Of a stretch of 64,000 nucleotides of DNA, positions 14,879 through 36,089 are shown piece after piece. Each line of letters opens with the position of its first letter. Positions within the stretch are counted from its first letter, which is position 1. The stretch covers positions 8,642 through 72,641 of the forward strand of contig JBBIOM010000006.1 of assembly GCA_037443365.1 (NCBI GenBank), in the 5' to 3' direction. Source of the DNA: Armatimonadota bacterium. Lineage in GTDB: Bacteria > Sysuimicrobiota > Sysuimicrobiia > Sysuimicrobiales > Humicultoraceae. The notes beneath the pieces were generated by a model. It searched no databases. It saw only the letters and a program-made list of their open reading frames with translations, and had not been told where the DNA came from. The position numbers and the translations under genes are program-made.

Positions 14879-16591
14879 GCCGGCTCCGTACCGGGCCAGG
14901 TCGATCCGGCCCGAGCGTGCGAACCGCACGCCCTCACGGCGCAGCCGCCGCCTCTGCGCCGCGGCGAACTGGCGGTTGGCGAGGGTCCCGTCGCCGCGCA
15001 CAACGCGCCACCACGGCGCGGCTTCGCCGTCGGGCAGCGATGCCAGCGCCCAGCCAACGGTGCGCCCACCGTTTCGCAGCCCGACCATCCGGGCGATCTC
15101 GCCGTATGTGGTGACGCTCCCCGGCGGTATGCGCCGCACCGCGGCGTAGATGCGCTCGAACAGGCCGCGTGTTCCTGATCCGGGGGGGCCAGGCAGGCCG
15201 GGTCTGGTCATGGCATCATGGTCCAGGATCTCATTCAACTGCTCGACGCCGAGCCGCCCCGACGCCAGCGCAACCTCGCGCACTGTGCGGCCGGTCCGGG
15301 CGGCTTCGCCGGCGATCCTGGCCGCGGCGTCGTATCCGATGATTGGCGCGAGAGCCGCAGCCAGCATCGGGCCCTGCTCGACCAGCTCGGGTCCGCGACC
15401 GGTTGCCCGAAGCCCGCCCACGCACCGGCGGGCGAAGTTGCGCGATGCCGCGCCCAGCAGGGCGATCGCCCCGAGCAGGTTGTGAGCCATCACGGGCATC
15501 ATCGTGTTGAGCTCGAAGTTGCCCCACTGGTTGCCCTGGGCCACCACGGCGTCACCCCCGATGGCCTGGGCGCAGGCCTGGATGACCGACTCGGCGATGA
15601 CCGGGTTTGTCTTGCCCGGCATGATCGAGGACCCGGGCTGTACCGCCGGAAGCACCAGCTCGCCAAGACCAGCGTGTGGCCCAGATCCCATCCAGCGAAT
15701 GTCGTTGGCGATCTTGGCCAGCGCGGTGGCGTATGTCCGGACGGCTCCCGAGCAGAAGACCACCGCGTCCAGGCAGGCCTGCGCCTGGAAGTGCGCCGCG
15801 GTTTCACGCAGCGGGATGCCGGTTATCTCACCCAGGCGCGCGCACACCCGGGCCGCGAACTCGGGATGCGCGTTCATGCCCGATCCCACGGCGGTACCGC
15901 CCAGCGCCACCTCGCACAGCTCGGCCTCGGCGTAGCCGATCCTGCGCCCGGCGGACGCGACCTGGTCGGCGTATCCGGCGAACTCCTGCCCCAACCGCAC
16001 CGGCGTGGCGTCCATCAGGTGCGTGCGTCCTGTCTTTGTGATCGCGTGGAACTGGCGCGCCTTCTTGCGCAGCGCCGCCTCCAGCTCGTCGAGCGCCGGA
16101 CGCAGGTCCTCGCGCAGCAACAGGAGCGCCGCCAGGTGCAGCGCGGTGGGGATGACGTCGTTGCTCGACTGGCAGAGGTTCACGTGATCGTTGGGATGCA
16201 CGGCCCCGCCGCCGCGCGCGGCGCCCATCAGCTCGGCGGCGCGGGCGGCTATGACCTCGTTGGCGTTCATGTTCGTGGACGTGCCCGATCCGGTCTGGAA
16301 GACGTCGAGCGGGAACTCGGCGTCGAGCGCGCCGTCGGCGACCTCCTTGGCCGCGCGGATGATGGGCCTCGCGAGCCTGCGGTCGAGCAGACCCAGGTCG
16401 GCGTTGACCTCGGCCGCGGCGCGCTTGATCAGGCCCAACGCGCGCACGAACACGCGCGGGAAGCGCAGGCCGCTGATCGGGAAGTTCACAATGGCTCGGG
16501 CGGTAGCCGCGCCGTAGTAGGCCCGGGCCGGGACCTCCACGCTCCCCATGGAATCGCGCTCGAGGCGCGTCCTTCTCTTGCTGCCCGGCAT
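14816..16591 (-). CDS. fumC: Class II fumarate hydratase fused to a C-terminal alkyltransferase-like (ATL/MGMT-family) domain
   Basis: FumC motifs FQTGSGTSTNMN, GRTHLMDATP, GSSIMPGKTNP, followed in frame by IPPGSVTTYGEIA...RTVGWAL...PWWRVV. Confidence 0.88.
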   Translation of the reverse strand: MPGSKRRTRLERDSMGSVEVPARAYYGAATARAIVNFPISGLRFPRVFVRALGLIKRAAAEVNADLGLLDRRLARPIIRAAKEVADGALDAEFPLDVFQTGSGTSTNMNANEVIAARAAELMGAARGGGAVHPNDHVNLCQSSNDVIPTALHLAALLLLREDLRPALDELEAALRKKARQFHAITKTGRTHLMDATPVRLGQEFAGYADQVASAGRRIGYAEAELCEVALGGTAVGSGMNAHPEFAARVCARLGEITGIPLRETAAHFQAQACLDAVVFCSGAVRTYATALAKIANDIRWMGSGPHAGLGELVLPAVQPGSSIMPGKTNPVIAESVIQACAQAIGGDAVVAQGNQWGNFELNTMMPVMAHNLLGAIALLGAASRNFARRCVGGLRATGRGPELVEQGPMLAAALAPIIGYDAAARIAGEAARTGRTVREVALASGRLGVEQLNEILDHDAMTRPGLPGPPGSGTRGLFERIYAAVRRIPPGSVTTYGEIARMVGLRNGGRTVGWALASLPDGEAAPWWRVVRGDGTLANRQFAAAQRRRLRREGVRFARSGRIDLARYGAGSNRKRGTIRAARTAHLRPGR

Positions 16592-16603
16592 GCGCGAACC
16601 TCC

Positions 16604-16873
16604 TTACTGCCGGTAGATCTCCGCCCGATGCCGGACGCGATGGAGGACGACGTCCGACCCCGCGATGTCGTACCTGACCCGGTAGGGCCACATCTCAAGC
16701 CGCCACTGACCTACCCCCTTGCCCTTGAGCTTCTTGATCCTGGGCGGAGGACCGCATGGGATGGTCTCAAGAGGCCGGACCGCTTCGATGACGCGCGCCC
16801 GTACGGCCGGGGGAAGCGCTTCGAGGTCACGCAGAAAGCTCGGGGTGAGCCGGACGACGAAGCGGGACGGCAT
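16604..16873 (-). CDS. Type II toxin, RelE/ParE family
   Basis: 89 aa, basic, with IKKLKG...WRL..WPYRVRY; directly downstream of an antitoxin. Confidence 0.85.
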   Translation of the reverse strand: MPSRFVVRLTPSFLRDLEALPPAVRARVIEAVRPLETIPCGPPPRIKKLKGKGVGQWRLEMWPYRVRYDIAGSDVVLHRVRHRAEIYRQ

Positions 16874-16876
16874 CGT

Positions 16877-17164
16877 TCAGCGACTCCGCCGTCGGGACAG
16901 CGTGCGCCGCACGTATTCCCTCAGGCTGATGGCCTCGCCGGCCTTGTGCTCGGCTGCCGCCACTCGCAGGGTCTCCTGGAACTCGGGGTCGAGCTCCTCC
17001 AGCATGTCGTCGAAGTCCGTCGTCCCGATGAGCACGGCCGTCGGGCGGCCCCTGCGGGTGATGACGTAGCGCGCCTTCCGCTCAGCCACCCGCTTGAGGA
17101 GCGCTCCGAGCTGGGTCCGGGCGAGGTAGGCCGGGATCGTGGCTGTTGGGTTTCTCTTCTGCAT
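16877..17164 (-). CDS. Type II antitoxin, Phd/YefM family
   Basis: ARTQLGALLKRV...YVITRRGRPTAVLI followed by an acidic C-terminal part. Confidence 0.88.
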   Translation of the reverse strand: MQKRNPTATIPAYLARTQLGALLKRVAERKARYVITRRGRPTAVLIGTTDFDDMLEELDPEFQETLRVAAAEHKAGEAISLREYVRRTLSRRRSR

Positions 17165-17187
17165 GTCCTCTTCCTCTTGGGACTCTT

Positions 17188-17233
17188 TTGATTAATCAAT
17201 TCCCACGATACGCCGCGCACCTTGGCCAGTCAA
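17188..17233 (-). promoter_or_regulatory. Sigma70-type promoter and palindromic operator of the TA operon
   Basis: Minus strand TTGACT-N17-TATCGT (17233-17205), followed by the perfect palindrome TTGATTAATCAA (17188-17199). Confidence 0.65.
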
Positions 17234-24431: not shown

Positions 24432-24791
24432 ATGCTGCTTGTAGACTGGCTTTACGTCGCCGCCTTCGCGATCACCGGCCTATCCCTGGCCGGCCTGTCG
24501 CTGGCCCTGGTCTGGGTGCTCTCCCCCAGGGCGCCGTATCCCCAGAAGCGCACAACGTACGAGTCCGGCATCGTGCCCTTCGGCCAGGCATGGGCGCAGT
24601 TCAACATCCGCTACTACCTGTTTGGGCTGGTCTTCGTGATCTTCGCCGTAGAGGTGATCTACCTCTACCCGTGGGCGATCGTGTTCAGGCAACTGGGCAG
24701 GTTCGCCTTCTTCGAGATGCTGATCTTCCTTGTCGTCCTTCTGGTCGCGCTGGCCTACGCCTGGCGGAAGGGTGCCCTCGAGTGGATCTGA
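24432..24791 (+). CDS. nuoA: NADH-quinone oxidoreductase subunit A
   Basis: Motifs [31 protein letters not shown]. Confidence 0.95.
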
Positions 24792-24828: not shown

Positions 24829-25806
24829 GTGAACTGGTGGGTCGAGATCGCCAAGGCCTTCCTGGCCGCGGTGGGGATGTTCACGTTCCTCGCCATCGTG
24901 GCGGCGATGTTTGGCGTGCTGCTCGAGCGCAAGGTGGGCGGGTGGATACAGTCCCGTCTGGGCCCCAAGCACGTTGGACCGCAGGGCGTGCTGCAGACCC
25001 TCGCGGATACCATCAAGCTGCTGCAAAAGGAGCACATAACCCCGCGCGCCGCGGACGTGCTTGTCTTCAACACCGCCCCCCTGATCGTGACGACCGCCGG
25101 GCTGATGGGCTGGCTGGTCATTCCGTTCGGGACGCTCTGGGGCAAGGTACTGGTCGTGCGCGACCTCAACATAGGCATCCTGTTCTTCGCGGCGATGGCC
25201 TCGATGACCGTGATCGGTATCCTGGCGGGCGGGTGGGCGTCCAACAACAAGTACTCCCTGCTCGGAGCGCTGCGCAGCGCCTCGCAGATGATAAGCTACG
25301 AGCTCCCCCTGGGGATCGCGCTCGTGGCCGTGGCCATGGAGGCCGGGACGCTCTCCACCGTGGGCATCGTCCGGGCGCAGGACGGCTGGATGGGGTCGTT
25401 CATCTTCCGGCAGTTTCCCGCGTTCGTGATCTTCCTGGTCGCGGCCACGGCCGAGGTCAACCGCATCCCGTTCGACCTGCCCGAGGCCGAGAGCGAGCTG
25501 GTCGCTGGCTACCACTCGGAGTACACGGGCATGCGCTTCTCCCTGTTCATGCTGGGCGAGTACGCCGAGATGTTCGCCATGGCCGCCATGATCACGACGC
25601 TCTTCCTGGGCGGATGGAAGGGGCCGCTGCTGCCGCCCATCCTGTGGTTCTTCCTGAAGATGTACCTGGTGGTGTTCTTCATGATGTGGGTGCGTTGGAC
25701 ATACCCGCGCTTCCGGCTGGACCAGCTCCTTAATCTGAGCTGGAAGATCCTGCTGCCCGCCGGTCTCATCTGGATCCTGATCTCGGGATACAGGATCACG
25801 TTCTAG
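24829..25806 (+). CDS. nuoH: NADH-quinone oxidoreductase subunit H
   Basis: Motifs [51 protein letters not shown]. Confidence 0.96.
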
Positions 25807-25809
25807 ACC

Positions 25810-26301
25810 ATGGGTACTCTGATGGCGTTCATCATCCTGTCCGCGGTCACGCTGGTGCCCGCGGTCGTTGTGGTGACCTCCAAGAACATCGTGCGCAGCG
25901 CCCTGTCTCTGGTTCCGACGTTCCTGGGTATCACGGGGCTGTACGTCCTGCTGCGGGCGGAGTTCGTCGCCGGCATCCAGGTGCTGATCTACGCCGGCGC
26001 GATCACGGTGCTGATCCTCTTCGTCATCATGCTCACCGAGGGCGGCACCGGTGTGCGCGTCCGCCAGGTCAACGAGCAGGTGCCAGTCGGCGCGCTCGTA
26101 AGCGCCGTGCTCGCGACGCTTCTGATCTGGGTGTTCCTCCGCACACCCTGGCCCCAGGGCCCCGGAACGCTGCCCGAGCACACCGCCGGCCAGATCGGCG
26201 TGACTTTTCTCTCGAGCATGGTGCTGGTCTTCGAGGTCACGAGCCTGGTGCTGCTGATCTCGCTCGTCGGCGCCATCATAATCGCGCGGCGCGAGCGGTA
26301 G
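25810..26301 (+). CDS. nuoJ: NADH-quinone oxidoreductase subunit J
   Basis: Motifs [16 protein letters not shown] and FEVTSLVLL. Confidence 0.95.
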
Positions 26302-26321: not shown

Positions 26322-26633
26322 GTGGCGGTCGGACTGACGCACTTCCTTGTGGTTGGCGCCCTGCTCTTCTGTTTGGGCCTCTACGGAGTGCTGACGCGGC
26401 GGAACGCGGTGGCGATCCTGATGGGCATCGAGCTGATGCTGAACGCCGCCAACATCAACCTGATCGCGTTCAACAAGTACGTGGCGCCCGCGGCGCTTGA
26501 CGGGCAGGTGTTCGCGCTGGTCGTGATCACGCTGGCGGCCTGCGAGGTCGGCGTCGGCCTGGCGCTGGTCATTACGGCCTACCGTAACCTTGAGACGGTC
26601 TACGTCGACCGGATCGATGTGCTGAAGTGGTAG
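26322..26633 (+). CDS. nuoK: NADH-quinone oxidoreductase subunit K
   Basis: Motifs [16 protein letters not shown] and [10 protein letters not shown]. Confidence 0.95.
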
Positions 26634-26635
26634 CG

Positions 26636-28597
26636 ATGCGCGATCTGGCCTGGCTCATCCCGCTGTTTCCCCTGGTCGCGTTCGGGCTGATCACCGCCCT
26701 CGGGCGGCGCCTGCCCGGGGAAGGAAGCCACGTGGCGGTCGCCGGCATCGGGCTTTCGGCGCTGCTCTCGATCGGCATCTTCGTCGAGATGGCGTTCGGC
26801 GCTCCCCCGGCGGAGATGACCGTCCGCTGGATGATGCTGGGCGGCAATCCCCTGGAGCTGGGGTTCCGCGTGGACCACCTCACCACGATCATGCTGCTCG
26901 TGGTCACGGTCGTCGGCTCGATGATCTTCATCTACTCGATCGGCTACATGCACGGCGACCCGCGCTTCCCGCGGTTCTTCGCCTATCTCTCGTTGTTCGC
27001 GGCCTCGATGCTCCTGCTGGTGCTGGCCGACAACCTGCTCTTTCTGTACGCCGGCTGGGAGCTGGTGGGGCTGTGCTCGTACCTGCTGATCGGCTTCTAC
27101 TTCGAGCGGCCCTCGGCCGCACGCGCGTCGCTCAAGGCCTTCCTCACCACGCGCGTGGGCGACTTCTTCATGTTCCTGGGAATCCTGCTCGTGTTCCTGA
27201 CGCTTGGGTCGTTCCGGTTCGAGGAGATCTTCGCGCGCGTGCGCGAGGGCGCGCTCGCCGGAGCGACGATCGGCGGCCTCCCCTTGCTGACGCTGGCGGC
27301 CGTGCTGATCTTCGGCGGGGCCGTGGGCAAGTCGGCTCAGGTGCCGCTCCACACCTGGCTCCCAGACGCGATGGAAGGCCCCACGCCGGTCTCGGCCCTG
27401 ATACACGCGGCCACGATGGTCGCCGCCGGCGTGTACCTGGTGGCGCGCACGTTCACGTTGTTCCTCGACTGGCCGGCGGCGGGAGCGCTCCACGGCGGCG
27501 CCGCGCTGCAGGCGGTGGCCTACGTGGGCGGGATCACCGCGTTGATGGCCGCCACGATCGCGGTGGTCCAGGACGACATCAAGCGCGTGCTGGCCTACTC
27601 GACCATCAGCCAGCTCGGCCTGATGATGCTGGGCCTGGGGATGCTCGGCTACACCGCCGGGATGTTCCACCTGATGACGCACGCCTTCTTCAAGGCCCTG
27701 CTGTTCCTGGGCGCCGGCAGCGTCATCCACGCCATGGGTACGAACGATATCAAGGCGATGGGCGGGCTGGCCCGCACGATGCCCTCCACGTACTGGACGT
27801 TCCTCATCGGCGCGCTGGCGCTGGCGGGCGTGCCCCCGCTTGCGGGCTTCTGGAGCAAGGACGAGATCTTGCTGGAGGCGTTCCACCACAACACCGGCCT
27901 GTTCGTGATGGCCGCCCTGACCTCGCTATTGACCGCGTTCTACATGTTCCGCGTCATCTTCTACACGTTCACCGGAACATTGAGGAGCCACGACGCCCAC
28001 CCCCACGAAAGCCCACCCGTCATGACCCTGCCCCTGTGGGTCCTGGCCGGCTTCTCCGCTGTGGTGGGGCTGGTCGGGGCACCTATGCTGGGGAACCCCA
28101 TGCACAGGTTCCTGCACTTCGAGGGGGTGGCGGCCGTCCCGTTCAGCGTTGGGCTGGCGCTCCTCTCAACCGCCATAGCCGGCGCCGGCATCCTGGCGGC
28201 GGCGGTCACATACCGCTGGGGCATCGTGCCTTCCAGCGCGCTGCGCCGCGCCGCCGGCCCGCTGTACGCGCTGGTGGTACGCAAGTACTACTTCGACGAG
28301 CTGTACGCCCTGGCGGTTGTTCGCCCCGTCCTCTGGATCGGACGGTCGCTTCGGGTCTTCGACGTCTACGTGATTGACATGCTGGTGAACCTGATCGGGG
28401 TCGGTGTCGTCGCGCTGGCCCGCCTGTACAGGCTGTTCGACCTGTACGTGGTGGACGGTGTGGTCAACCTTGTGGGCTGGACGGCCAAGGCGCTCGGCGG
28501 GACCCTGCGCTACGTCCAGACCGGCCGCGCGCAGAACTACCTGCTGGCGATCGCGCTCGGCGTGATCGTGATCGTGGCCGCGGGGCTGCTCCGGTAG
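26636..28597 (+). CDS. nuoL: NADH-quinone oxidoreductase subunit L (extended amphipathic helix)
   Basis: Motifs WELVGLCSYLLIGF, GKSAQVPLHTWLPDAMEGPTPVSALIHAATMV, HAFFKALLF, QTG. Confidence 0.96.
   Translation: MRDLAWLIPLFPLVAFGLITALGRRLPGEGSHVAVAGIGLSALLSIGIFVEMAFGAPPAEMTVRWMMLGGNPLELGFRVDHLTTIMLLVVTVVGSMIFIYSIGYMHGDPRFPRFFAYLSLFAASMLLLVLADNLLFLYAGWELVGLCSYLLIGFYFERPSAARASLKAFLTTRVGDFFMFLGILLVFLTLGSFRFEEIFARVREGALAGATIGGLPLLTLAAVLIFGGAVGKSAQVPLHTWLPDAMEGPTPVSALIHAATMVAAGVYLVARTFTLFLDWPAAGALHGGAALQAVAYVGGITALMAATIAVVQDDIKRVLAYSTISQLGLMMLGLGMLGYTAGMFHLMTHAFFKALLFLGAGSVIHAMGTNDIKAMGGLARTMPSTYWTFLIGALALAGVPPLAGFWSKDEILLEAFHHNTGLFVMAALTSLLTAFYMFRVIFYTFTGTLRSHDAHPHESPPVMTLPLWVLAGFSAVVGLVGAPMLGNPMHRFLHFEGVAAVPFSVGLALLSTAIAGAGILAAAVTYRWGIVPSSALRRAAGPLYALVVRKYYFDELYALAVVRPVLWIGRSLRVFDVYVIDMLVNLIGVGVVALARLYRLFDLYVVDGVVNLVGWTAKALGGTLRYVQTGRAQNYLLAIALGVIVIVAAGLLR
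28358..28513 (+). repeat. In-frame 78-bp (26-codon) imperfect tandem duplication in nuoL
   Basis: FDVYVIDMLVNLIGVGVVALARLYRL is followed by FDLYVVDGVVNLVGWTAKALGGTLRY. Confidence 0.8.
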
Positions 28598-28640
28598 CCC
28601 GGATCGGGCGACGCCGGGAGAAGAGGGGGAAGGGACACGA

Positions 28641-30149
28641 ATGGAACGCTACCTGCTGACGATCACGGTGTTCCTGCCGCTCCTTGGCGCGCTGGCGATC
28701 CTGCTCATACCGAAAGGCCGCGAAGAGCTGATGAGGTGGGTGGCCGTCGCCGCAGCCGCGCTTGCCTTCCTGGCGTCGCTATGGATCCTGGGGCCGTACG
28801 AGATCGGCAAGGCAGGCATGCAGTTGCAGGAGCGCTACCTGTGGATTCCGGGGATCGGGATCAACTACCACCTGGGCGTGGACGGCCTCGGCCTGCCCCT
28901 GCTTCTCATGACCACCCTGCTCTCCCTGCTGTCCGTGATCTACTCCTGGCGCGTGGATCTGCGGGTGAAGGAGTACCTGTTCCTGTTCCTGCTGCTCGAG
29001 ACCGGGACGCTGGGCGTGTTCGTGGCGCTGGACTTCTTCCTGTTCTTCGTTTTCTGGGAGATAACGCTGGTGCCAATGTACCTCCTGATAGGCATCTGGG
29101 GCGGCCCGCGCCGCGAGTACGCGGCGATCAAGTTCTTCCTCTACACGCTTGTGGGCTCGCTGGCGATGCTGCTGGCGATAATGCTGCTCTACTTCAGTTC
29201 TGAACCCCGCACGTTCGGAATAATGGAGCTCATCGGGCAGCAGCCGCTCGCGAAGGCCCCCACGCTCGCCGCGCTGGCGTTCTGGGGCTTCTTCCTGTCG
29301 TTCGCGATCAAGGTGCCGATGTGGCCGTTCCACACCTGGCTTCCGGACGCGCACGTGGAGGCGCCCACGGCCGGCAGCGTGATCCTTGCCGCGGTCCTCC
29401 TGAAGATGGGCACGTACGGCTTCGTCCGGATCAGCCTCCCCATGCTGCCGGAGACCTTCAAGCTCTTCGCCATGCCGGTTGCGATCCTGGCGCTGCTGGG
29501 GATCGTCTACGGCGCGCTCGTGGCCATGGCGCAGACCGACCTCAAGAAGCTGGTCGCCTACTCCAGCGTCAACCACATGGGGTACGTGATGCTGGGCGTG
29601 GCGGCCGCGGCCGGCGCGGTGGGCATCCCCGAGAAGGCGCACGCCGCCACGATCGCGCTCAACGGGGCCGTATTCGAGATGGTGGCCCACGGCATCATCA
29701 CCGGGGCGCTGTTCCTCATCGTCGGGGTGATCTACGACTACCGGGCTCACACGCGTGGGGTGAACGAGTTCGGAGGGCTGGGCGCCCGGCTTCCGGTCTA
29801 CACCGGGGTCACCATGATGGCGATGCTGGCGTCACTGGGGCTGCCTGGCCTGATGGGGTTCGTGGCCGAGTTCCTCATCTTCGTGGGATCGTTTGGGGTG
29901 TTCCCCGAGCTGACCGCCGTGGCGCTGACCGGCGTCATCTTCTCGGCCGCGATGTTCCTGTGGACGATCCAGCGCATATTCCTGGGTCCCCCGAACCCGA
30001 GGTGGGCCCACCTGCCCGATCTTGACCGGCGCGAGGTGATCTCGCTGGCTCCCCTGGCCGCGCTCATGCTGATCTTCGGCGTCTATCCCCGCGCGCTGCT
30101 CGACGTGATCAACGTGGCGATGACCAGCCTGGTGACCGTGCTTCGGTAG
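28641..30149 (+). CDS. nuoM: NADH-quinone oxidoreductase subunit M
   Basis: Motifs FWEITLVPMY, KVPMWPFHTWLPDAHVEAPT, LKMGTYG, AYSSVNHMG. Confidence 0.96.
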   Translation: MERYLLTITVFLPLLGALAILLIPKGREELMRWVAVAAAALAFLASLWILGPYEIGKAGMQLQERYLWIPGIGINYHLGVDGLGLPLLLMTTLLSLLSVIYSWRVDLRVKEYLFLFLLLETGTLGVFVALDFFLFFVFWEITLVPMYLLIGIWGGPRREYAAIKFFLYTLVGSLAMLLAIMLLYFSSEPRTFGIMELIGQQPLAKAPTLAALAFWGFFLSFAIKVPMWPFHTWLPDAHVEAPTAGSVILAAVLLKMGTYGFVRISLPMLPETFKLFAMPVAILALLGIVYGALVAMAQTDLKKLVAYSSVNHMGYVMLGVAAAAGAVGIPEKAHAATIALNGAVFEMVAHGIITGALFLIVGVIYDYRAHTRGVNEFGGLGARLPVYTGVTMMAMLASLGLPGLMGFVAEFLIFVGSFGVFPELTAVALTGVIFSAAMFLWTIQRIFLGPPNPRWAHLPDLDRREVISLAPLAALMLIFGVYPRALLDVINVAMTSLVTVLR

Positions 30150-30158
30150 GGGCCGCAG

Positions 30159-31601
30159 ATGCCTGTACCCGTTGAGGATCTCTGGTCGTTCGTCCCCGAG
30201 CTCTGGCTGGCGGCCCTCGGGGTCTTGCTGCTGCTGTTCGACCTGTTCCTTCCGGCGGATCGCAAGCGGCTCGTGGGCTGGGCGGCCGTGGTGGGGTTGC
30301 TGTTCGCCCTCGTGCCCGTCCTGGGGATGCTGGGGATCCCGGCCCGCACCATCTTCTTCGACTCCTACGCCGCGGATGGCTTCGCGGTCTTCTTCAAGAT
30401 AATCGCCCTGACCTCCACGATCCTTGTCATCCTCTCGGCCATGGACGCGCTGCGCGGGCAGACCGGGTTCGAGGGTGAGATGTACGTGCTGCTGACCTTC
30501 GCGGCGCTGGGGGCGTGCCTGATGGCGGCCAGCGCCGACCTGATCCTGCTGGCGCTGTCAATCGAGCTCGTCAGTCTCTCCTCGTACGTCATGGCCGGCT
30601 ACTTCAAGTCCGACCCGCGCAGCAACGAGGCCGGGATCAAGTACTTCCTGTTCGGCGCCGCCTCCTCGGCGGTGATGATATACGGGTTCTCAATCCTCTA
30701 CGGCCTGACGGGCGAGACCAACCTCTACGTCATCGCCGAGCGGGTCCGAACCGCGCCGGGCCCTGCCCTGACACTCGCGGTGGGCATGGCGCTGGCCGGA
30801 TTGGGTTTCAAGGTCTCGATGGTTCCGTTCCACCAGTGGACGCCGGATGTCTACGAGGGCGCGCCCACGCCGGTCGCGGCGTTCCTCTCCGTGGCAAGCA
30901 AGGCGGCGGGGTTCGCGGCGCTGGTCCGGTTCCTGGTGGTGGCCGTCGAACCGGGCCCGGTGGACTGGGTTGCGCCGATCGCCGTCCTCTCCGCGGTGAG
31001 CATGACGCTGGGCAACCTGCTGGCCCTTCCGCAGCGCAACATCAAGCGGATGCTGGCCTACTCGAGCATCGCCCACGCGGGCTTCCTGCTGATGGGTGTC
31101 GCGGCCCACCGCGGTGACTTCGGCGCCCCGGGCCTGCTCATCTACCTGCTGGCGTACACGTTCACGAACCTGGGCGCGTTCTTCGTGGCGACGGCCGTCG
31201 GGGGACGGCTGGGCTCGGACGACATGACGGGCTACGCCGGCCTGGCTCAGCGCTCGGCCGGGATGGCCGCCGTCATGGCGCTGTTCATGCTCTCGCTCGC
31301 AGGCATACCACCCACAGGCGGGTTCTTCGGCAAGTTCTACATCTTCGGCGCCGCGATCAACAACGGGCTGCTGTGGCTGGCAGTGGTGGCTGTGGCCAAC
31401 AGCGTGGTGGCGCTGTACTACTACGCGAACGTGATCCGGGTCATGTACCTGCTCCCGATCCCCTCAGGGGAGCCGGTGGGCGGGCCAGGGCCCCTGCGCC
31501 TTGCCCTTGGGATCGCCGCGCTGGGCACGCTGCTTGTGGGCGTGTTTCCGCAGCCGTTCGTCGCCCTCGCCGGTGCGGCCGCGATGCTGCTGCGGATGTA
31601 G
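30159..31601 (+). CDS. nuoN: NADH-quinone oxidoreductase subunit N
   Basis: Motifs EAGIKYF, FKVSMVPFHQWTPDVYEGAP, KRMLAYSSIAHAG, GIPPTGGFFGK. Confidence 0.96.
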   Translation: MPVPVEDLWSFVPELWLAALGVLLLLFDLFLPADRKRLVGWAAVVGLLFALVPVLGMLGIPARTIFFDSYAADGFAVFFKIIALTSTILVILSAMDALRGQTGFEGEMYVLLTFAALGACLMAASADLILLALSIELVSLSSYVMAGYFKSDPRSNEAGIKYFLFGAASSAVMIYGFSILYGLTGETNLYVIAERVRTAPGPALTLAVGMALAGLGFKVSMVPFHQWTPDVYEGAPTPVAAFLSVASKAAGFAALVRFLVVAVEPGPVDWVAPIAVLSAVSMTLGNLLALPQRNIKRMLAYSSIAHAGFLLMGVAAHRGDFGAPGLLIYLLAYTFTNLGAFFVATAVGGRLGSDDMTGYAGLAQRSAGMAAVMALFMLSLAGIPPTGGFFGKFYIFGAAINNGLLWLAVVAVANSVVALYYYANVIRVMYLLPIPSGEPVGGPGPLRLALGIAALGTLLVGVFPQPFVALAGAAAMLLRM

Positions 31602-31658: not shown

Positions 31659-31687
31659 TTGACGGGGTATGGGGGGTTTGCTACGCT
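31659..31687 (+). promoter_or_regulatory. Sigma70-type promoter of the V/A-ATPase operon
   Basis: TTGACG-N17-TACGCT with an extended -10 TG. Confidence 0.6.
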
Positions 31688-31763
31688 GAAGTGTGGAGTG
31701 AGCCCCCGGGGCGACGCGTCCTGGGGGTTTCTTGCTGGCGGGATGCCGGGGAGCCGGGGAACC

Positions 31764-32126
31764 ATGGGCAGGAAGAACCCATCAGGGCAGGGGGACGACC
31801 ACCACGCCGGCGACGACCTCCTCAAGATAATCGCCGACCGCGAACGCGAGCTGGAGACCCAGGCGGCGTCCGCCCGCGACGAGGCCGCGGCCGCGGTCGC
31901 ACAGGCGCGCGCCCAGGCCGAGCAGATCGCGCGTGACGCGCGCCTGGAGGCGGCCAGGTTGGCCGAGGAGTCGGCGAGACGCATCGCGGATGATGTCCGG
32001 CGGATCGAGCACGAGGCTCAGGCCACCGCCCTGCGCGAGATCGAGAGGCTGCGCGCGCAGGCGGCGGCCCGTCGCGAGGCGGCCGCAGCCGATGTGGTCG
32101 AGCGCGTCATAGCAGGCGGCGAATGA
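31764..32126 (+). CDS. V/A-type ATPase peripheral stalk subunit (G/H)
   Basis: Ala/Glu/Arg-rich coiled coil; first gene of the operon. Confidence 0.8.
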   Translation: MGRKNPSGQGDDHHAGDDLLKIIADRERELETQAASARDEAAAAVAQARAQAEQIARDARLEAARLAEESARRIADDVRRIEHEAQATALREIERLRAQAAARREAAAADVVERVIAGGE

Positions 32127-34129
32127 TCGTCGAGATGCGCCGGGTGCTGGTCTTCGGCCCCAACCGGCTGTTGCGCGGGGTCGTGGAGGAGATACAGCGT
32201 CTCGGCGCGCTGCACATCGAGCCTGTCTCGGCCGAGGAGCCGGCGATAGGTGCGCTGCGGCCTGACGAGGCCGCGACCGCTGCTCAGTCGGCGATCGAGC
32301 GGGCCCGCGCACGCGCCGCCAACCTGCTCAACCTGCTCCCGGCCATCCCCTCAGCGGGAGAGGCCGGGTCTGTGCCGCCGTCCGGGCGGGGTGCGCCGCC
32401 CGGCGAGTCCCTTGTGGACACCGAGACGCTCGAGGACAGCGAGGCCCTCGATGCGCTGCTGGAGGGCATCGAGGCCGAGGTGGGGGCCCTCACCCGGCGC
32501 CGCCTCGACGCCGAGGACGAGCTCGAGATGATTCAGACGTACGAGGGCGCGGTGCGCGCCCTCTCCCCTCTGCTCGGCGTGCTCTCGGGCAGCCGCTCCC
32601 TGGAGTCGCTCGGTTTCATCCTGCGCGGCCGGGACCTCTCGCTCGTTACCGCCGTGCGCAACCAGCTCCGCGAACTGACGGGTGGGCGCGTTGAGGTTGT
32701 GGGCCGCATAATCGAGGAGGGCAGGATCGGCGTGGTCGTGGCCTTCCTGCACCGCGACGCCGAGACGATACGCGCGTGGCTCACCCGGGCGGGGATCAGC
32801 GAACTGCGCCTGCCCGCGCGTTACGCCGGCGGGGGGCCGGCCGAGGCCGTGCGCACGATGGAACGCCGGCGGGCCGAACTGCCGGGCGAGATGGCCGAGA
32901 TCGCCTCCGGGCTGGCCGAGGCCGCGCGCCGCAGCCGGCCTCTCCTGGAGGCGGTCCTGTCGCTTGCCTCCGACCGGCTCGGGCAGTTCCGGGCGCTATC
33001 GAGCCTCGCGCAGTCGCGCTACACGTTCATCCTGCATGGTTGGGCGCCTGCCTCGCGCGTGCGCGAGATCCGCGAGGCCCTGCGCGCGCGCTTCGGCCGC
33101 GAGGTCGTCGTGCACGACCAGCCGGCCGACCACCATCACGCCGAGGCAGTCCCTGTGCTGCTCGACAACCCGCCGGTGATCAAGCCGTTCCAGCGGCTGC
33201 TGGGCCTGTTCCGGCCGCCGCGGTACGGCACACTGGATCCCACGGTCTACCTGGCCTTCTTCTTCCCGATCTTCGTCGGCATGGTCATCGGCGACGTCGC
33301 ATACGGTGCGCTGCTCTTCGCGCTCGGATGGTGGATGCGCCAGAGGGCGCGCAGCAACAGGCCCTGGGACGTCGCCCTGGGGAGCATCAAGATGGGCATC
33401 CACGTCGCCCCCAGCGTGCTCGCGGACATATCATGGATCGTCCGTACGATGGCGGCCTGGACGATTCTCTTCGGCGTGCTCTATCTTGAGGTCTTCGGCA
33501 ACCTGGTCGAGCATCACCTGGGCCTGCACCCGATCTTCAACCGCGTTCACCTGACAACCGCGTTCCTGGGGCTCGCGGTCGCGATGGGGATCGTCCAGGT
33601 GATGCTGGGCTACCTGCTCCACCTCGTGCTGGCGCTACGCCACAGGCACGCCTTCGGCGCGCTGGAGTCGCTGGCCATGATGACGGGTGTGGCCGCGCTC
33701 TTCGCGCTGCTGGGCGCCATGGGCAACGTGCTGCCCTCCAGCTTCTTCACGCCGGGCGTGTTCCTGCTGGTGGCCTTCCTGGTCGCGGTCATGGCAGGCA
33801 TCGCGGTGAGCCCGCACGCCGCGATGTGGCTGCTGGAGGCGATCTCGGGCATGGGCAACGTGCTCTCCTATGCCCGGTTGTTCGGTGTGGGCCTGGCCGC
33901 CGCCGTGCTGGCCAACGTCTCCAACGAGCTGGGCGGTATGTTCGGTCCGGTCTGGATCGGGATCATCCTAGGCATCTTTGTCCAGATGATCTTCTTCGCC
34001 TTCACGCTGGCCGGGCACATCATCCAGCCCGCGCGGTTGAACTGGGTCGAGTTCCTCACCAAGATCAAGTACCACGACGAGGGCGGCAACTCGTACAGGC
34101 CGCTCCACAAGACAGGAGGTGGACTATGA
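32123..34129 (+). CDS. ntpI: V/A-type ATPase subunit I (a)
   Basis: Motifs PRYGTLDPT, GDVAYG, NVLSYARL, RLNWVEF. Confidence 0.93.
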   Translation: MIVEMRRVLVFGPNRLLRGVVEEIQRLGALHIEPVSAEEPAIGALRPDEAATAAQSAIERARARAANLLNLLPAIPSAGEAGSVPPSGRGAPPGESLVDTETLEDSEALDALLEGIEAEVGALTRRRLDAEDELEMIQTYEGAVRALSPLLGVLSGSRSLESLGFILRGRDLSLVTAVRNQLRELTGGRVEVVGRIIEEGRIGVVVAFLHRDAETIRAWLTRAGISELRLPARYAGGGPAEAVRTMERRRAELPGEMAEIASGLAEAARRSRPLLEAVLSLASDRLGQFRALSSLAQSRYTFILHGWAPASRVREIREALRARFGREVVVHDQPADHHHAEAVPVLLDNPPVIKPFQRLLGLFRPPRYGTLDPTVYLAFFFPIFVGMVIGDVAYGALLFALGWWMRQRARSNRPWDVALGSIKMGIHVAPSVLADISWIVRTMAAWTILFGVLYLEVFGNLVEHHLGLHPIFNRVHLTTAFLGLAVAMGIVQVMLGYLLHLVLALRHRHAFGALESLAMMTGVAALFALLGAMGNVLPSSFFTPGVFLLVAFLVAVMAGIAVSPHAAMWLLEAISGMGNVLSYARLFGVGLAAAVLANVSNELGGMFGPVWIGIILGIFVQMIFFAFTLAGHIIQPARLNWVEFLTKIKYHDEGGNSYRPLHKTGGGL

Positions 34130-34452
34130 CGAAGAAAGTCCTGAGGGCTGCCGTCCTGCTGACCGTGGCCCTGCTGGTGGTTGCCCCGGTCGCACTTGCC
34201 GCCGAGGCGCAGGCGGCAGTGTCCCGGCAGATCACGATGGCTCACGGGCTGTTGGGCCTGGCCGCGGCTCTGGCCGTGGCATTCGGCGCCATTGGGACCG
34301 CCTGGGCGCAGTCGCGCATCGGAGCGGCCGCGGCCGGTGCGATTGCCGAGCGCCCCGAGATCGGCGGCCTCATGCTGATCTTCCTGGTCCTGCCCGAGAC
34401 GCTCATCATCTTCGGCTTCCTGGTGGCGTTCTTCATCATCGGGAAGATATAG
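34126..34452 (+). CDS. ntpK: V/A-type ATPase proteolipid subunit K (c)
   Basis: AQSRIGAA...LPETLIIFG single hairpin with an N-terminal leader. Confidence 0.93.
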   Translation: MTKKVLRAAVLLTVALLVVAPVALAAEAQAAVSRQITMAHGLLGLAAALAVAFGAIGTAWAQSRIGAAAAGAIAERPEIGGLMLIFLVLPETLIIFGFLVAFFIIGKI

Positions 34453-34463
34453 ACCGATCCGCC

Positions 34464-35045
34464 GTGGCGACCGGTTCGGAACTGATCTCTCTGCTCGAGC
34501 GCGAGGCGGCAAGTGAGCGCGCGCGGATCCTGTCGGAGGCCCGGGCGCAGGCCGCGGCCATCCTGACCGAGGCCCGGCGCGCGGCCGGCGAGGCCCTGAC
34601 CGCGACGCGGGAGCGGCTCGAGGCCGAGGAGCGCGCGGCCCTGGTCAAGGCCAGGAGCACGGCCGCGCTTGCCGCCGCGTCGCTGGTTCTGCAGGTCAAG
34701 GAGGACGAGATCGCGCGCGCGTTCGCGCAGGCCGAAGCGGCCCTGGGGGCGCTGGCCGCCGATCCGCGGCGCTACACCGGGATCCTGCGCCGCCTCATCG
34801 AGGAGGCCCTAGCGCAGTCGGGCGGCGGCGTCGTATCCGTGGCTCCGCAGGACCTGGCGACGGCCGAGGCGCTCGTGCGCGAGCACGCGTGGGACGCGAC
34901 GGTGCGCGCCGATCCCGCGGTCGGCGCAGGGGCGCGCATCGCTTCGTCCGACGGGCGTCTGGTGGTGACCAACACCCTGGCCTCGCGCCTCGGCCGTGCC
35001 CGCCCGGCGCTGGCCCCTGCGGTGGCCAGGACGCTGTGGGGATAA
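34464..35045 (+). CDS. ntpE: V/A-type ATPase subunit E
   Basis: Coiled-coil N-terminus, VTNTLASRL...ARTLWG end, and operon position. Confidence 0.88.
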   Translation: MATGSELISLLEREAASERARILSEARAQAAAILTEARRAAGEALTATRERLEAEERAALVKARSTAALAAASLVLQVKEDEIARAFAQAEAALGALAADPRRYTGILRRLIEEALAQSGGGVVSVAPQDLATAEALVREHAWDATVRADPAVGAGARIASSDGRLVVTNTLASRLGRARPALAPAVARTLWG

Positions 35046-35057
35046 CGGTCCGGGACG

Positions 35058-36089
35058 ATGCCTGACTTCCCGTACATCAACGCGCGGGTGCGCGCGATGC
35101 ACGGCCGTTTGCTCGACGCCGCCCCGCTCGATGACCTGGTGGGAGCGCCGACCATGGGCGCGCTCCTGCAGGCGCTGTCCTCCACGCCCTACGCCGGCGA
35201 CCTCGGAGAAGCCCTCGTGCGCTTCGAGGGCCTCCGGGCCGTGGACGAGGCGCTGGCCAGGAACCTCCAGCGCACCACGCGCAAGATCCTGCGATTCGCC
35301 GACGGACGGCCCCGCGCGCTGATCGAGGCGATCCTGCTGCGGTGGGACCTCGCGAACCTCCGGGTCATCGTGCGCGGCAAGCACGGCGGCAGACCCGCCG
35401 ACGAGGTGGGCTCGGCGCTCCTGCCCGCGGGCCTGCTGGGCGAGGCCGTCCTCCGAGAGATGGCCTCGGCGCAGGACCTGGCGGGCGTGGCCGGGATCCT
35501 GGAGGCGGTGGGGCATCCCTTCGCGCAGGTGCTCGCCCAGGTCGCGGCCGCCCAGGCGAAGAAGACGGACCTCCTCGGAAGCGAGCTGATGCTGGACCGC
35601 GCGTACATCGAGAGGGGGATGCGCTTCGCGCGGGGGAGCGACGCTGGCGCAGCCGCCCTCCGCCAGGTGCTCTGCGCTGAGGTGGACGCGGCCAACGCCA
35701 AGACCGCCTTCCGGATGGGCCTGGCCGGGGAACTGGACGAGGAGACGCGCCTGCGCTTCTTTGTTCCGGGCGGCGCGCTGATCCTCTCGGATCTCTTCCT
35801 GGCGCTGTCAGAACCGCGCACGCGCTCGTCGGCCTGGCAGAAACTGCGGATGAGCGGCTTCCCGGTGCGCGACCTCCCGCAGACACCGGTTGAGTTCGAG
35901 CGCGCGATGGACCTAGCCACGGCCAGGGCGATGGCCGCGCGCTTCAGGGGCGACCCGCTCGGGCTCGACGTGGTGGTAGGGTACCTGGCGAAGAAGACCG
36001 CAGAGGTCGCCAACCTCCGCCTGGCGGCGCGGGGCGTGTTCCTGGGGCTGCCGCGCGAGGCGGTGCGCCAGGAGATGATGCGTGTATAG
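35058..36089 (+). CDS. ntpC: V/A-type ATPase subunit C (d)
   Basis: Motifs FPYINARVRAM, RWDLANL, EVANLRL. Confidence 0.9.
   Translation: MPDFPYINARVRAMHGRLLDAAPLDDLVGAPTMGALLQALSSTPYAGDLGEALVRFEGLRAVDEALARNLQRTTRKILRFADGRPRALIEAILLRWDLANLRVIVRGKHGGRPADEVGSALLPAGLLGEAVLREMASAQDLAGVAGILEAVGHPFAQVLAQVAAAQAKKTDLLGSELMLDRAYIERGMRFARGSDAGAAALRQVLCAEVDAANAKTAFRMGLAGELDEETRLRFFVPGGALILSDLFLALSEPRTRSSAWQKLRMSGFPVRDLPQTPVEFERAMDLATARAMAARFRGDPLGLDVVVGYLAKKTAEVANLRLAARGVFLGLPREAVRQEMMRV

Follow-up and report, generated by a model that had tools for sequence, protein, structure and literature searches.

A tandem contact module in helix HL of NuoL, encoded in a complex I operon with a single nuoM gene

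Introduction

As Chadwick, Hemp, Fischer and Orphan reportedly described it in 2018, 2M complex I combines a second nuoM gene with a NuoL whose helix HL is longer by about 26 residues. Genome papers treat this insertion as the mark of a "2M" complex I with a fifth proton. Here we analyze a stretch of 64,000 nucleotides, called the window below, from the genome of an Armatimonadota bacterium (GTDB phylum Sysuimicrobiota; GenBank assembly GCA_037443365.1, contig JBBIOM010000006.1, positions 8,642 to 72,641 of the forward strand). Its plus strand carries the complex I membrane-arm operon nuoA, nuoH, nuoJ, nuoK, nuoL, nuoM, nuoN, in which a NuoL with a lengthened helix HL is combined with a single nuoM.

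In the 2M clusters of Chloroflexi, nuoBCDI are encoded apart from the membrane genes, according to the sections of PMC7117926 consulted. Two enzymes of "Ca. Manganitrophaceae", Complex_I_1 and Complex_I_2, have the HL insertion in NuoL together with canonical gene content (Yu et al. 2022, mBio, PMC9040806, in excerpt). In the same excerpt these enzymes are taken to be either able to accept extra subunits or in transition, toward or away. The mismatch is hence already in print for the Manganitrophaceae; in a literature search covering main texts, Yu et al. 2022 was the only published precedent found for a long HL without an extra pump gene.

Results

The nuoL gene (26627–28597, plus strand) encodes 656 residues and scores 678.8 bits against NF005141 (cut-off 556). 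Within helix HL we observed two in-frame tandem units offset by exactly 78 nt, as a first-pass annotation of the DNA had described. Copy 1, FDVYVIDMLVNLIGVGVVALARLYRL, comprises residues 578–603 (28358–28435, plus strand) and copy 2, FDLYVVDGVVNLVGWTAKALGGTLRY, residues 604–629 (28436–28513, plus strand). Both modules keep the motif FD..D..VN..G, and 12 of their 26 residues are identical. With a BLOSUM62 sum of 63, the two copies form the top-scoring pair among all 182,710 pairs of 26-residue windows in NuoL (mean -21.4, standard deviation 11.4). At the DNA level the repeat does not exceed the background of this G+C-rich gene: 40 of 78 positions are identical, and the offsets 318, 336 and 222 score higher. 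Since the repeat is visible in the protein and not in the DNA, the duplication is old.

The span from the D of YFD to the Q of QTG amounts to 74 residues by difference (the 75 of the first-pass annotation, counted inclusively) versus 49 in the second NuoL of the same genome. The canonical span of 48–50 residues, as quoted in the first-pass annotation, was seen in 47 other NuoL sequences, and the alignment yields a net insertion of 26 residues at the location described for 2M complexes. In a phmmer comparison with solved chains, NuoL residues 6–573 and 596–650 align to NdhF1 of T. elongatus, leaving residues 574–595 unmatched; in such alignments the single module of solved NdhF/NuoL chains falls on copy 2. 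What this NuoL has in addition is one more 26-residue HL contact module, which arose by an ancient in-frame tandem duplication. Three phmmer searches listed 38, 7 and 6 solved chains, among which no best alignment (3, 2 and 5 examined) covers both modules, so that a structural template with two HL modules is lacking in those alignments.

We modeled NuoL as a monomer with AlphaFold2 (AF2) from a 109-row alignment, which resulted in a mean predicted local distance difference test score (pLDDT) of 89.9. According to a DSSP analysis of the model, HL is predicted to form one continuous helix of 81 residues (residues 553–633; 28283–28525, plus strand), followed after QTG by the C-terminal anchor helix TM16 (residues 635–655; 28529–28591, plus strand). 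The extra 26 residues are thus modeled within the helix and not as a looped-out segment. The pLDDT values along this region are 76–89 over residues 551–620, 67 at residues 621–630 and 58 at residues 631–640.

A superposition with E. coli NuoL (PDB-entry 3rko) by VIA-align resulted in a Z-score of 51.2 and a root-mean-square deviation of 2.0 over 549 residues, with model residues 5–578 corresponding to chain residues 1–562. The tight superposition stops at model residue 578, equivalent to chain residue 562, where copy 1 begins. In E. coli NuoL, residues P564–N566 are located at the contact to NuoM and P552 lies between L and M (Belevich et al. 2011, PMC3274701, in excerpt). The end of the superposition and this contact together indicate that the canonical single module sits on NuoM, with TM16 approximately 24 residues further on. 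At 1.5 Å per residue, 26 helical residues add approximately 39 Å. One antiporter-like subunit is approximately this wide, and the second module would place a second NuoM-type contact approximately 39 Å further along the arm.

The additional module could also be tolerated slack that is harmless or stabilizing: in an otherwise normal L-M-N arm it would bulge, kink or rest on the surface of the membrane. Its recurrent size of 26 residues would then reflect how the module duplicates and not a need. We consider this improbable. The same excerpt of PMC3274701 reports E. coli complex I to be active with insertions of 6–7 residues in HL after G532 and P564, which speaks for slack; insertions after P552 were not tolerated. 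The continuous helix of the AF2 model speaks against it, and since the canonical helix has one module, no pre-existing repeat would bias duplication toward the same 26 residues. The sequence comparisons given below also bear on this point.

The family scans agree with the gene calls of the first-pass annotation for the three pump genes: like NuoL, NuoM (502 residues; 28641–30149, plus strand; TIGR01972, 582.7 bits versus 263.8) and NuoN (480 residues; 30159–31601, plus strand; TIGR01770, 400 bits versus 332.6) exceed the curated family cut-offs. The gaps are 43 bp between nuoL and nuoM (28598–28640, plus strand) and 9 bp between nuoM and nuoN, exactly as annotated, and therefore space for a further gene is lacking. 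The purine-rich ribosome-binding stretch noted upstream of nuoM is present in the 43-bp spacer. This spacer is indeed the largest in the operon, though by a narrow margin, as the gap between nuoA and nuoH amounts to about 37 bp if nuoH starts at GTG 24829.

Apart from this operon, we find no dedicated fourth pump gene in the rest of the genome (2.2 Mb in 69 contigs, 97.7% complete). All nine matches to PF00361 are accounted for by two L/M/N sets, an MrpA/MrpD pair and one hydrogenase subunit; the idea that a second, dedicated NuoM is encoded elsewhere is not supported. The second L/M/N set belongs to a canonical 14-gene nuoA-N operon at the end of contig C5 (86913–100804), whose NuoL has one HL module and a span of 49. 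Contig C43 contains two PF00361 matches in open frames of 929 and 506 residues, which we take to be MrpA and MrpD from their lengths and from the MrpA- and MrpD-family matches of NuoL. The last match is a 651-residue antiporter-like subunit on contig C2, in a cluster resembling group-4 NiFe hydrogenases (locus L071, G000:C2 5236–15005, minus strand). This cluster also encodes a HycI protease, a fused NuoC/NuoD-like large subunit with a NiFe hydrogenase signature, a NuoH-like protein, a ferredoxin and a NuoB-like protein; it is flanked by Fer4_22 and NAD-binding proteins. We rejected the 651-residue protein as the missing subunit, because it belongs to the hydrogenase cluster and because many long-helix genomes have no seventh PF00361 match. 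Among 60 genomes of the phylum that are at least 90% complete, no more than six PF00361 matches, i.e. no more than two L/M/N sets, were counted in 20 of 45 genomes from long-helix families and in 11 of 15 from the short-helix family f4 described below; for these tallies, which include G015 (one of the 20) and G024, the helix state was assigned by family and verified in 31 genomes.

The peripheral subunits matching the window operon are probably encoded on contig C20, which carries nuoB, nuoD, a 4Fe-4S protein gene and nuoC in the unusual order B-D-I-C (locus L072, G000:C20 5722–9576, minus strand). The NuoI-like gene is named by its position, because only generic 4Fe-4S ferredoxin families match it. 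Taken together, the window and C20 supply A, B, C, D, H, I, J, K, L, M and N, and from this gene content we infer a single complex I of 11 subunits without the NADH module. Family scans detected none of nuoB, C, D, I, E, F and G among the membrane genes of the window operon, and nuoE, F and G were likewise found neither there nor beside the C20 cluster. The two matches to PF01512 (NuoF) in the genome are located in the canonical operon on C5 and at C2:65809. The 11-subunit enzyme coexists with a canonical 14-gene operon in one genome. The C20 cluster is preceded by a YceI-like gene and by an open reading frame (ORF) of 116 residues without a family. The YceI-like family binds polyisoprenoids.

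We compared the locus with relatives in the same phylum, for which the sample comprises one class, one order, 94 genomes and seven families. The order K-L-M-N with one M occurs in the DNA of 31 of 31 relatives, one M being interrupted by a run of N. This makes an assembly artefact, in which two tandem nuoM genes were collapsed into one in a metagenome-assembled genome (MAG), a negligible prospect: the genome is a draft of 69 contigs, but the relatives were assembled separately, one of them (G014) in 4 contigs, and the two M genes of real 2M operons are too different to collapse.

The long helix, with a span of 74 residues, was found in 27 of the 31 relatives (families f1, f2, f5 and f7), whose NuoL proteins are 59–90% identical to that of the window. 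In the remaining four, all from family f4, the span is 48, and exactly one module is absent, in register. The module kept in f4 resembles copy 2, and the missing one therefore looks like copy 1. In six of six further loci (two from f4, two from f5, one each from f7 and f2) nuoL is preceded by nuoA, H, J and K, and the sizes of these four genes are the same in f4 and in the long-helix families. A NuoL match at E <= 1e-135 was obtained in 72 of 73 genomes of the phylum, a cut-off that admits one match per genome and not the second set; the PF00361 counts are compatible with two L/M/N sets for the majority of these genomes.

Among the 27 long-helix NuoL sequences the mean pairwise identity is 0.62 for copy 1, 0.66 for copy 2 and 0.68 for the whole protein. 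It is 0.55 for the start of HL, 0.57 for residues 450–552 and 0.69 for TM16. As the modules are conserved near the level of the whole protein, they are not decaying, and the suggestion that the extension is a relic was not borne out. In this enzyme lineage the long helix is ancient and under selection. For the slack described above, f4 is a favorable case in that it manages without the module while all else has the same size. On the other side, copy 1 keeps the motif FD..D..VN..G and is more conserved (0.62) than the adjoining HL start (0.55) and the 450–552 region (0.57).

The spacing between nuoL and nuoM differs along the same lines. With start codons placed heuristically and among related lineages, a spacer of 9–214 bp that contains a separate purine-rich site lies between the two genes in 22 of 22 relatives from f1, f2 and f7; in f4 they overlap by 4–7 nt in four of four. 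In some relatives of the same family (loci L045, L047 and L048) the spacer reaches 107–214 bp through one or two copies of a short element with a G+C-rich inverted repeat, which is absent from the 43-bp spacer of the window.

For the direction of change we calculated NuoL trees without the helix columns. Trees of NuoL alone place f5 outside f4 and the other families (support 88 in FastTree, 86 in a quick IQ-TREE run). A single clade of the long-helix families was not rejected by the approximately unbiased (AU) test (p 0.112), and the concatenated L+M+N tree shows a trichotomy of f5, f4 and the rest. A sister relation to a clade of Acidimicrobiia (FastTree 98) was not recovered by IQ-TREE, which gave a polytomy. 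Because the nearest outside lineages have the long helix, parsimony, though not the trees themselves, favors the loss of one module in f4. In the NuoM tree, the window NuoM belongs to the phylum's own clade among first-position M subunits. The second M subunits of 2M operons form distant groups, and the window NuoM does not fall with them.

These results make it very unlikely that the locus is a relic or an intermediate of a true 2M complex, i.e. that a nuoL-M1-M2-N ancestor lost one nuoM and the helix has yet to shrink. Such a history would fit the position of the insertion at the 2M site. It would also fit the separation of nuoBCDI, as in the Chloroflexi 2M clusters (PMC7117926, sections consulted), and the transition "toward or away" raised for the Manganitrophaceae (Yu et al. 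2022, PMC9040806, in excerpt). In our sample, however, there is no 2M operon in or beside the clade, and the nearest lineages are single-M. The trait is common to four families with 59–90% identical NuoL proteins and is under purifying selection, and the window NuoM groups with neither M of the 2M operons.

Outside the phylum we analyzed the best 80 of at least 600 stretches. These were ranked by likeness to the insert-bearing query, an arbitrary sample, and the fractions 33/80 and 20/33 given here are therefore not frequencies in nature. HL length is bimodal in the 80 loci, with 47 at 48–50 residues, 33 at 74–77 and none between 50 and 74. The constancy of the long class in 33 of 33 loci, with this empty interval, is a further argument against slack. 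In the NuoL tree the long helix stands in several separate places, always with 74–77 residues. The 33 long-helix loci divide into 7 with two nuoM genes, 20 with one and 6 that are cut off or ambiguous (L076, L115, L145, L087, L112, L150).

Two full nuoM genes were found in Nitrospiraceae, Verrucomicrobiota and Acidobacteriaceae. The long helix is present in all seven of these operons, and two full nuoM genes were not encountered in any of the 47 short-helix loci. The 20 single-M loci have complete L-M-N sets with no space for another gene and represent at least eight named phyla; carriers come from Zixibacteria, Ignavibacteriota, Planctomycetota, Verrucomicrobiota, Acidobacteriota, Actinomycetota and Binatota, together with one MAG labeled Hyphomicrobiales. 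A cultured carrier in the sample is a Melioribacter isolate (Ignavibacteriota, locus L084). All 10 outside genomes with a long-helix single-M operon that were tested also contain a second L/M/N set. In several other phyla (genomes G099, G100, G101 and G103) the canonical operon is located within approximately 3–15 kb of the long-helix single-M operon on the same contig. Overlap of nuoL with nuoM outside the phylum was observed in 1 of 23 long single-M loci, in 11 of 39 short-helix loci and in 6 of 7 2M loci (L with the first M). A search with the C-terminal part of NuoL yielded homologues with two modules from outside the phylum; two metagenomic NuoL homologues, P0110 and P0122, contain three tandem FD modules, i.e. 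two extra modules in HL.

The first-pass annotation had reasoned that an extension common in single-nuoM operons and modeled as looped out would count against an arm of four modules. The extension is indeed common in such operons (20 of the 33 long-helix loci), but in the AF2 model it is part of a continuous helix. The window is therefore one case among many, and a second nuoM cannot be predicted from the length of the helix alone. A long helix together with one nuoM is a genuine and conserved mismatch, but a common one among bacteria.

The single L, M and N genes in 31 of 31 relatives and 20 outside loci, and the lack of a dedicated extra gene, would also suit a longer clamp on an ordinary L-M-N arm. 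Module 1 would then bind NuoM and module 2 the equivalent surface of NuoN, with no fourth pump and no extra proton, and TM16 would be anchored next to the NuoK/J/A bundle, one module closer to the quinone end. In favor of the clamp, the homology of NuoM and NuoN (PF00361 in both) makes a similar docking surface conceivable, and in solved structures the NuoK/J/A bundle is approximately one module wide. We nevertheless regard it as unlikely. A new docking site for TM16 would be needed at each origin, and the long helix stands in several places of the tree. TM16 is conserved between the long-helix families and f4 like the rest of the protein (0.69), which suggests no changed environment, and nuoA, H, J and K show no change in size between them. 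The clamp also leaves the pattern of nuoL-nuoM spacers unexplained.

The remaining genes of the operon are all located on the plus strand. It begins with nuoA (24432–24791, 119 residues; PF00507, E 6.6e-36; its best NCBIfam match, NF005839, is below the cut-off). The following nuoH (24829–25806) scores 351.1 bits against NF004741 (cut-off 305) over ORF residues 42–354; the frame is open from TTG 24730, and the start is likely the GTG at 24829. Then come nuoJ (25810–26301, 163 residues; PF00499, E 3.4e-36) and nuoK (26322–26633, 103 residues; PF00420, E 6e-29). The genes upstream of the operon are unrelated (RapZ-like, CofD-family and a beta-eliminating lyase). Downstream, a set of V/A-type ATPase genes (G-, I-, E- and C/AC39-subunit families) occupies 31659–36089 and beyond on the same strand. 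It begins 58 bp 3' of nuoN, and the pump operon and the ATPase operon therefore adjoin. At 15218–17191 (plus strand) the window contains an ORF of 657 residues without a Pfam match at E <= 0.001, which in this G+C-rich DNA may or may not be a real gene.

Discussion

Based on the sequence comparisons and the helix model we tentatively favor, as the most probable of several readings though short of an even chance, that the extra length is filled by a fourth module through re-use: NuoM would be used twice, or the M subunit of the co-resident operon would be taken up. HL would be a ruler set for four modules, because the quantum of approximately 39 Å recurs in separate NuoL lineages and in every 2M operon sampled. 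The fourth place would need no separate gene, as either a second copy of the window NuoM (L-M-M-N) or the NuoM of the canonical operon would occupy it. Each FD..D..VN..G module would then sit on one M-type subunit, and TM16 would occupy its usual site beside NuoN. Re-use without a new interface would explain the recurrence of the same quantum as well as its presence in all 2M operons. The second L/M/N sets of the outside genomes would put a paralogous M at hand, which we count in favor of re-use. A separate ribosome-binding site in front of nuoM fits a NuoM used twice weakly; judging from the gene spacing, translation of nuoM looks uncoupled from that of nuoL in operons that combine a long helix with a single M.

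Several points weigh against re-use. All steps from a longer helix to a fourth module are inferential. In real 2M operons the second M differs greatly from the first, a hint that the place is usually taken by a specialized subunit rather than by a duplicate of M. The spacer trend depends on heuristic starts in related lineages, and within the phylum it amounts to one event. As E. coli tolerates insertions of 6–7 residues at two HL sites (PMC3274701, in excerpt), a longer helix need not be lethal to an L-M-N arm. The presence of the co-resident operon may have another cause, e.g. the supply of NuoEFG. Finally, the AF2 model is a monomer, so that the straight helix is unconstrained. The four-module arm of the first-pass annotation is in this light a reasonable but unproven proposal with partial support.

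A more general form of re-use, which we consider possible though doubtful, would make HL a molecular ruler for the number of pump modules. One additional module would bring in a fourth antiporter-like subunit without a new gene (NuoM twice, or a co-resident M) and yield a five-proton enzyme. Re-use would be widespread, extending over the phylum studied here, Ignavibacteriota, Planctomycetota, Acidimicrobiia and others. The two-nuoM operons would have hard-wired the arrangement later, and the deletion in f4 would have switched it back.

In the window and in 20 of the 33 outside long-helix loci, the signature of 2M complex I occurs without a second nuoM gene. If four-pump arms arise from three pump genes in many bacteria, the bookkeeping of protons per electron (H+/e-) would change for a whole class of NuoEFG-less complex I. 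Alternatively, helix length is an unsafe predictor of pump number, and 2M assignments based on the insertion only need checking.

Compared with known systems, the canonical type with 14 subunits in one operon fits the operon on C5 and not that of the window, and the window operon does not lie among mrp or hydrogenase genes, which form separate loci in this genome. The window NuoL shares its fold with the canonical NuoL/NdhF proteins of E. coli (3RKO), T. thermophilus (4HE8), M. smegmatis (8E9G) and T. elongatus (6HUM), with Z-scores of 51–54, and keeps the HL motif order YFD...RP...FD..D..VN..G...QTG. Unlike it, the proteins of these solved complexes have a single FD module.

With 2M complex I the window enzyme has in common the HL insertion of approximately 26 residues, at the same place, and a cluster without nuoEFG. 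It differs in having one nuoM, in the window and in 31 of 31 relatives, separate nuoC and nuoD genes (B-D-I-C) instead of a fused nuoCD, and a NuoM unrelated to the second M of 2M operons. Because the insertion is present without a second nuoM, the window operon is not a 2M operon. As in the Chloroflexi 2M clusters, so far as the consulted sections of PMC7117926 describe them, its nuoB-D-I-C genes are encoded apart from the membrane genes. It resembles Complex_I_1 and Complex_I_2 of the Manganitrophaceae, as excerpted from Yu et al. 2022 (PMC9040806), in combining the HL insertion with no extra pump gene; those enzymes, from Nitrospirota, are described as canonical in gene content and order, whereas the 11 subunits of the window enzyme are spread over two loci. 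The window operon is thus one member of a widespread, little-described class that combines a long helix HL with three pump genes.

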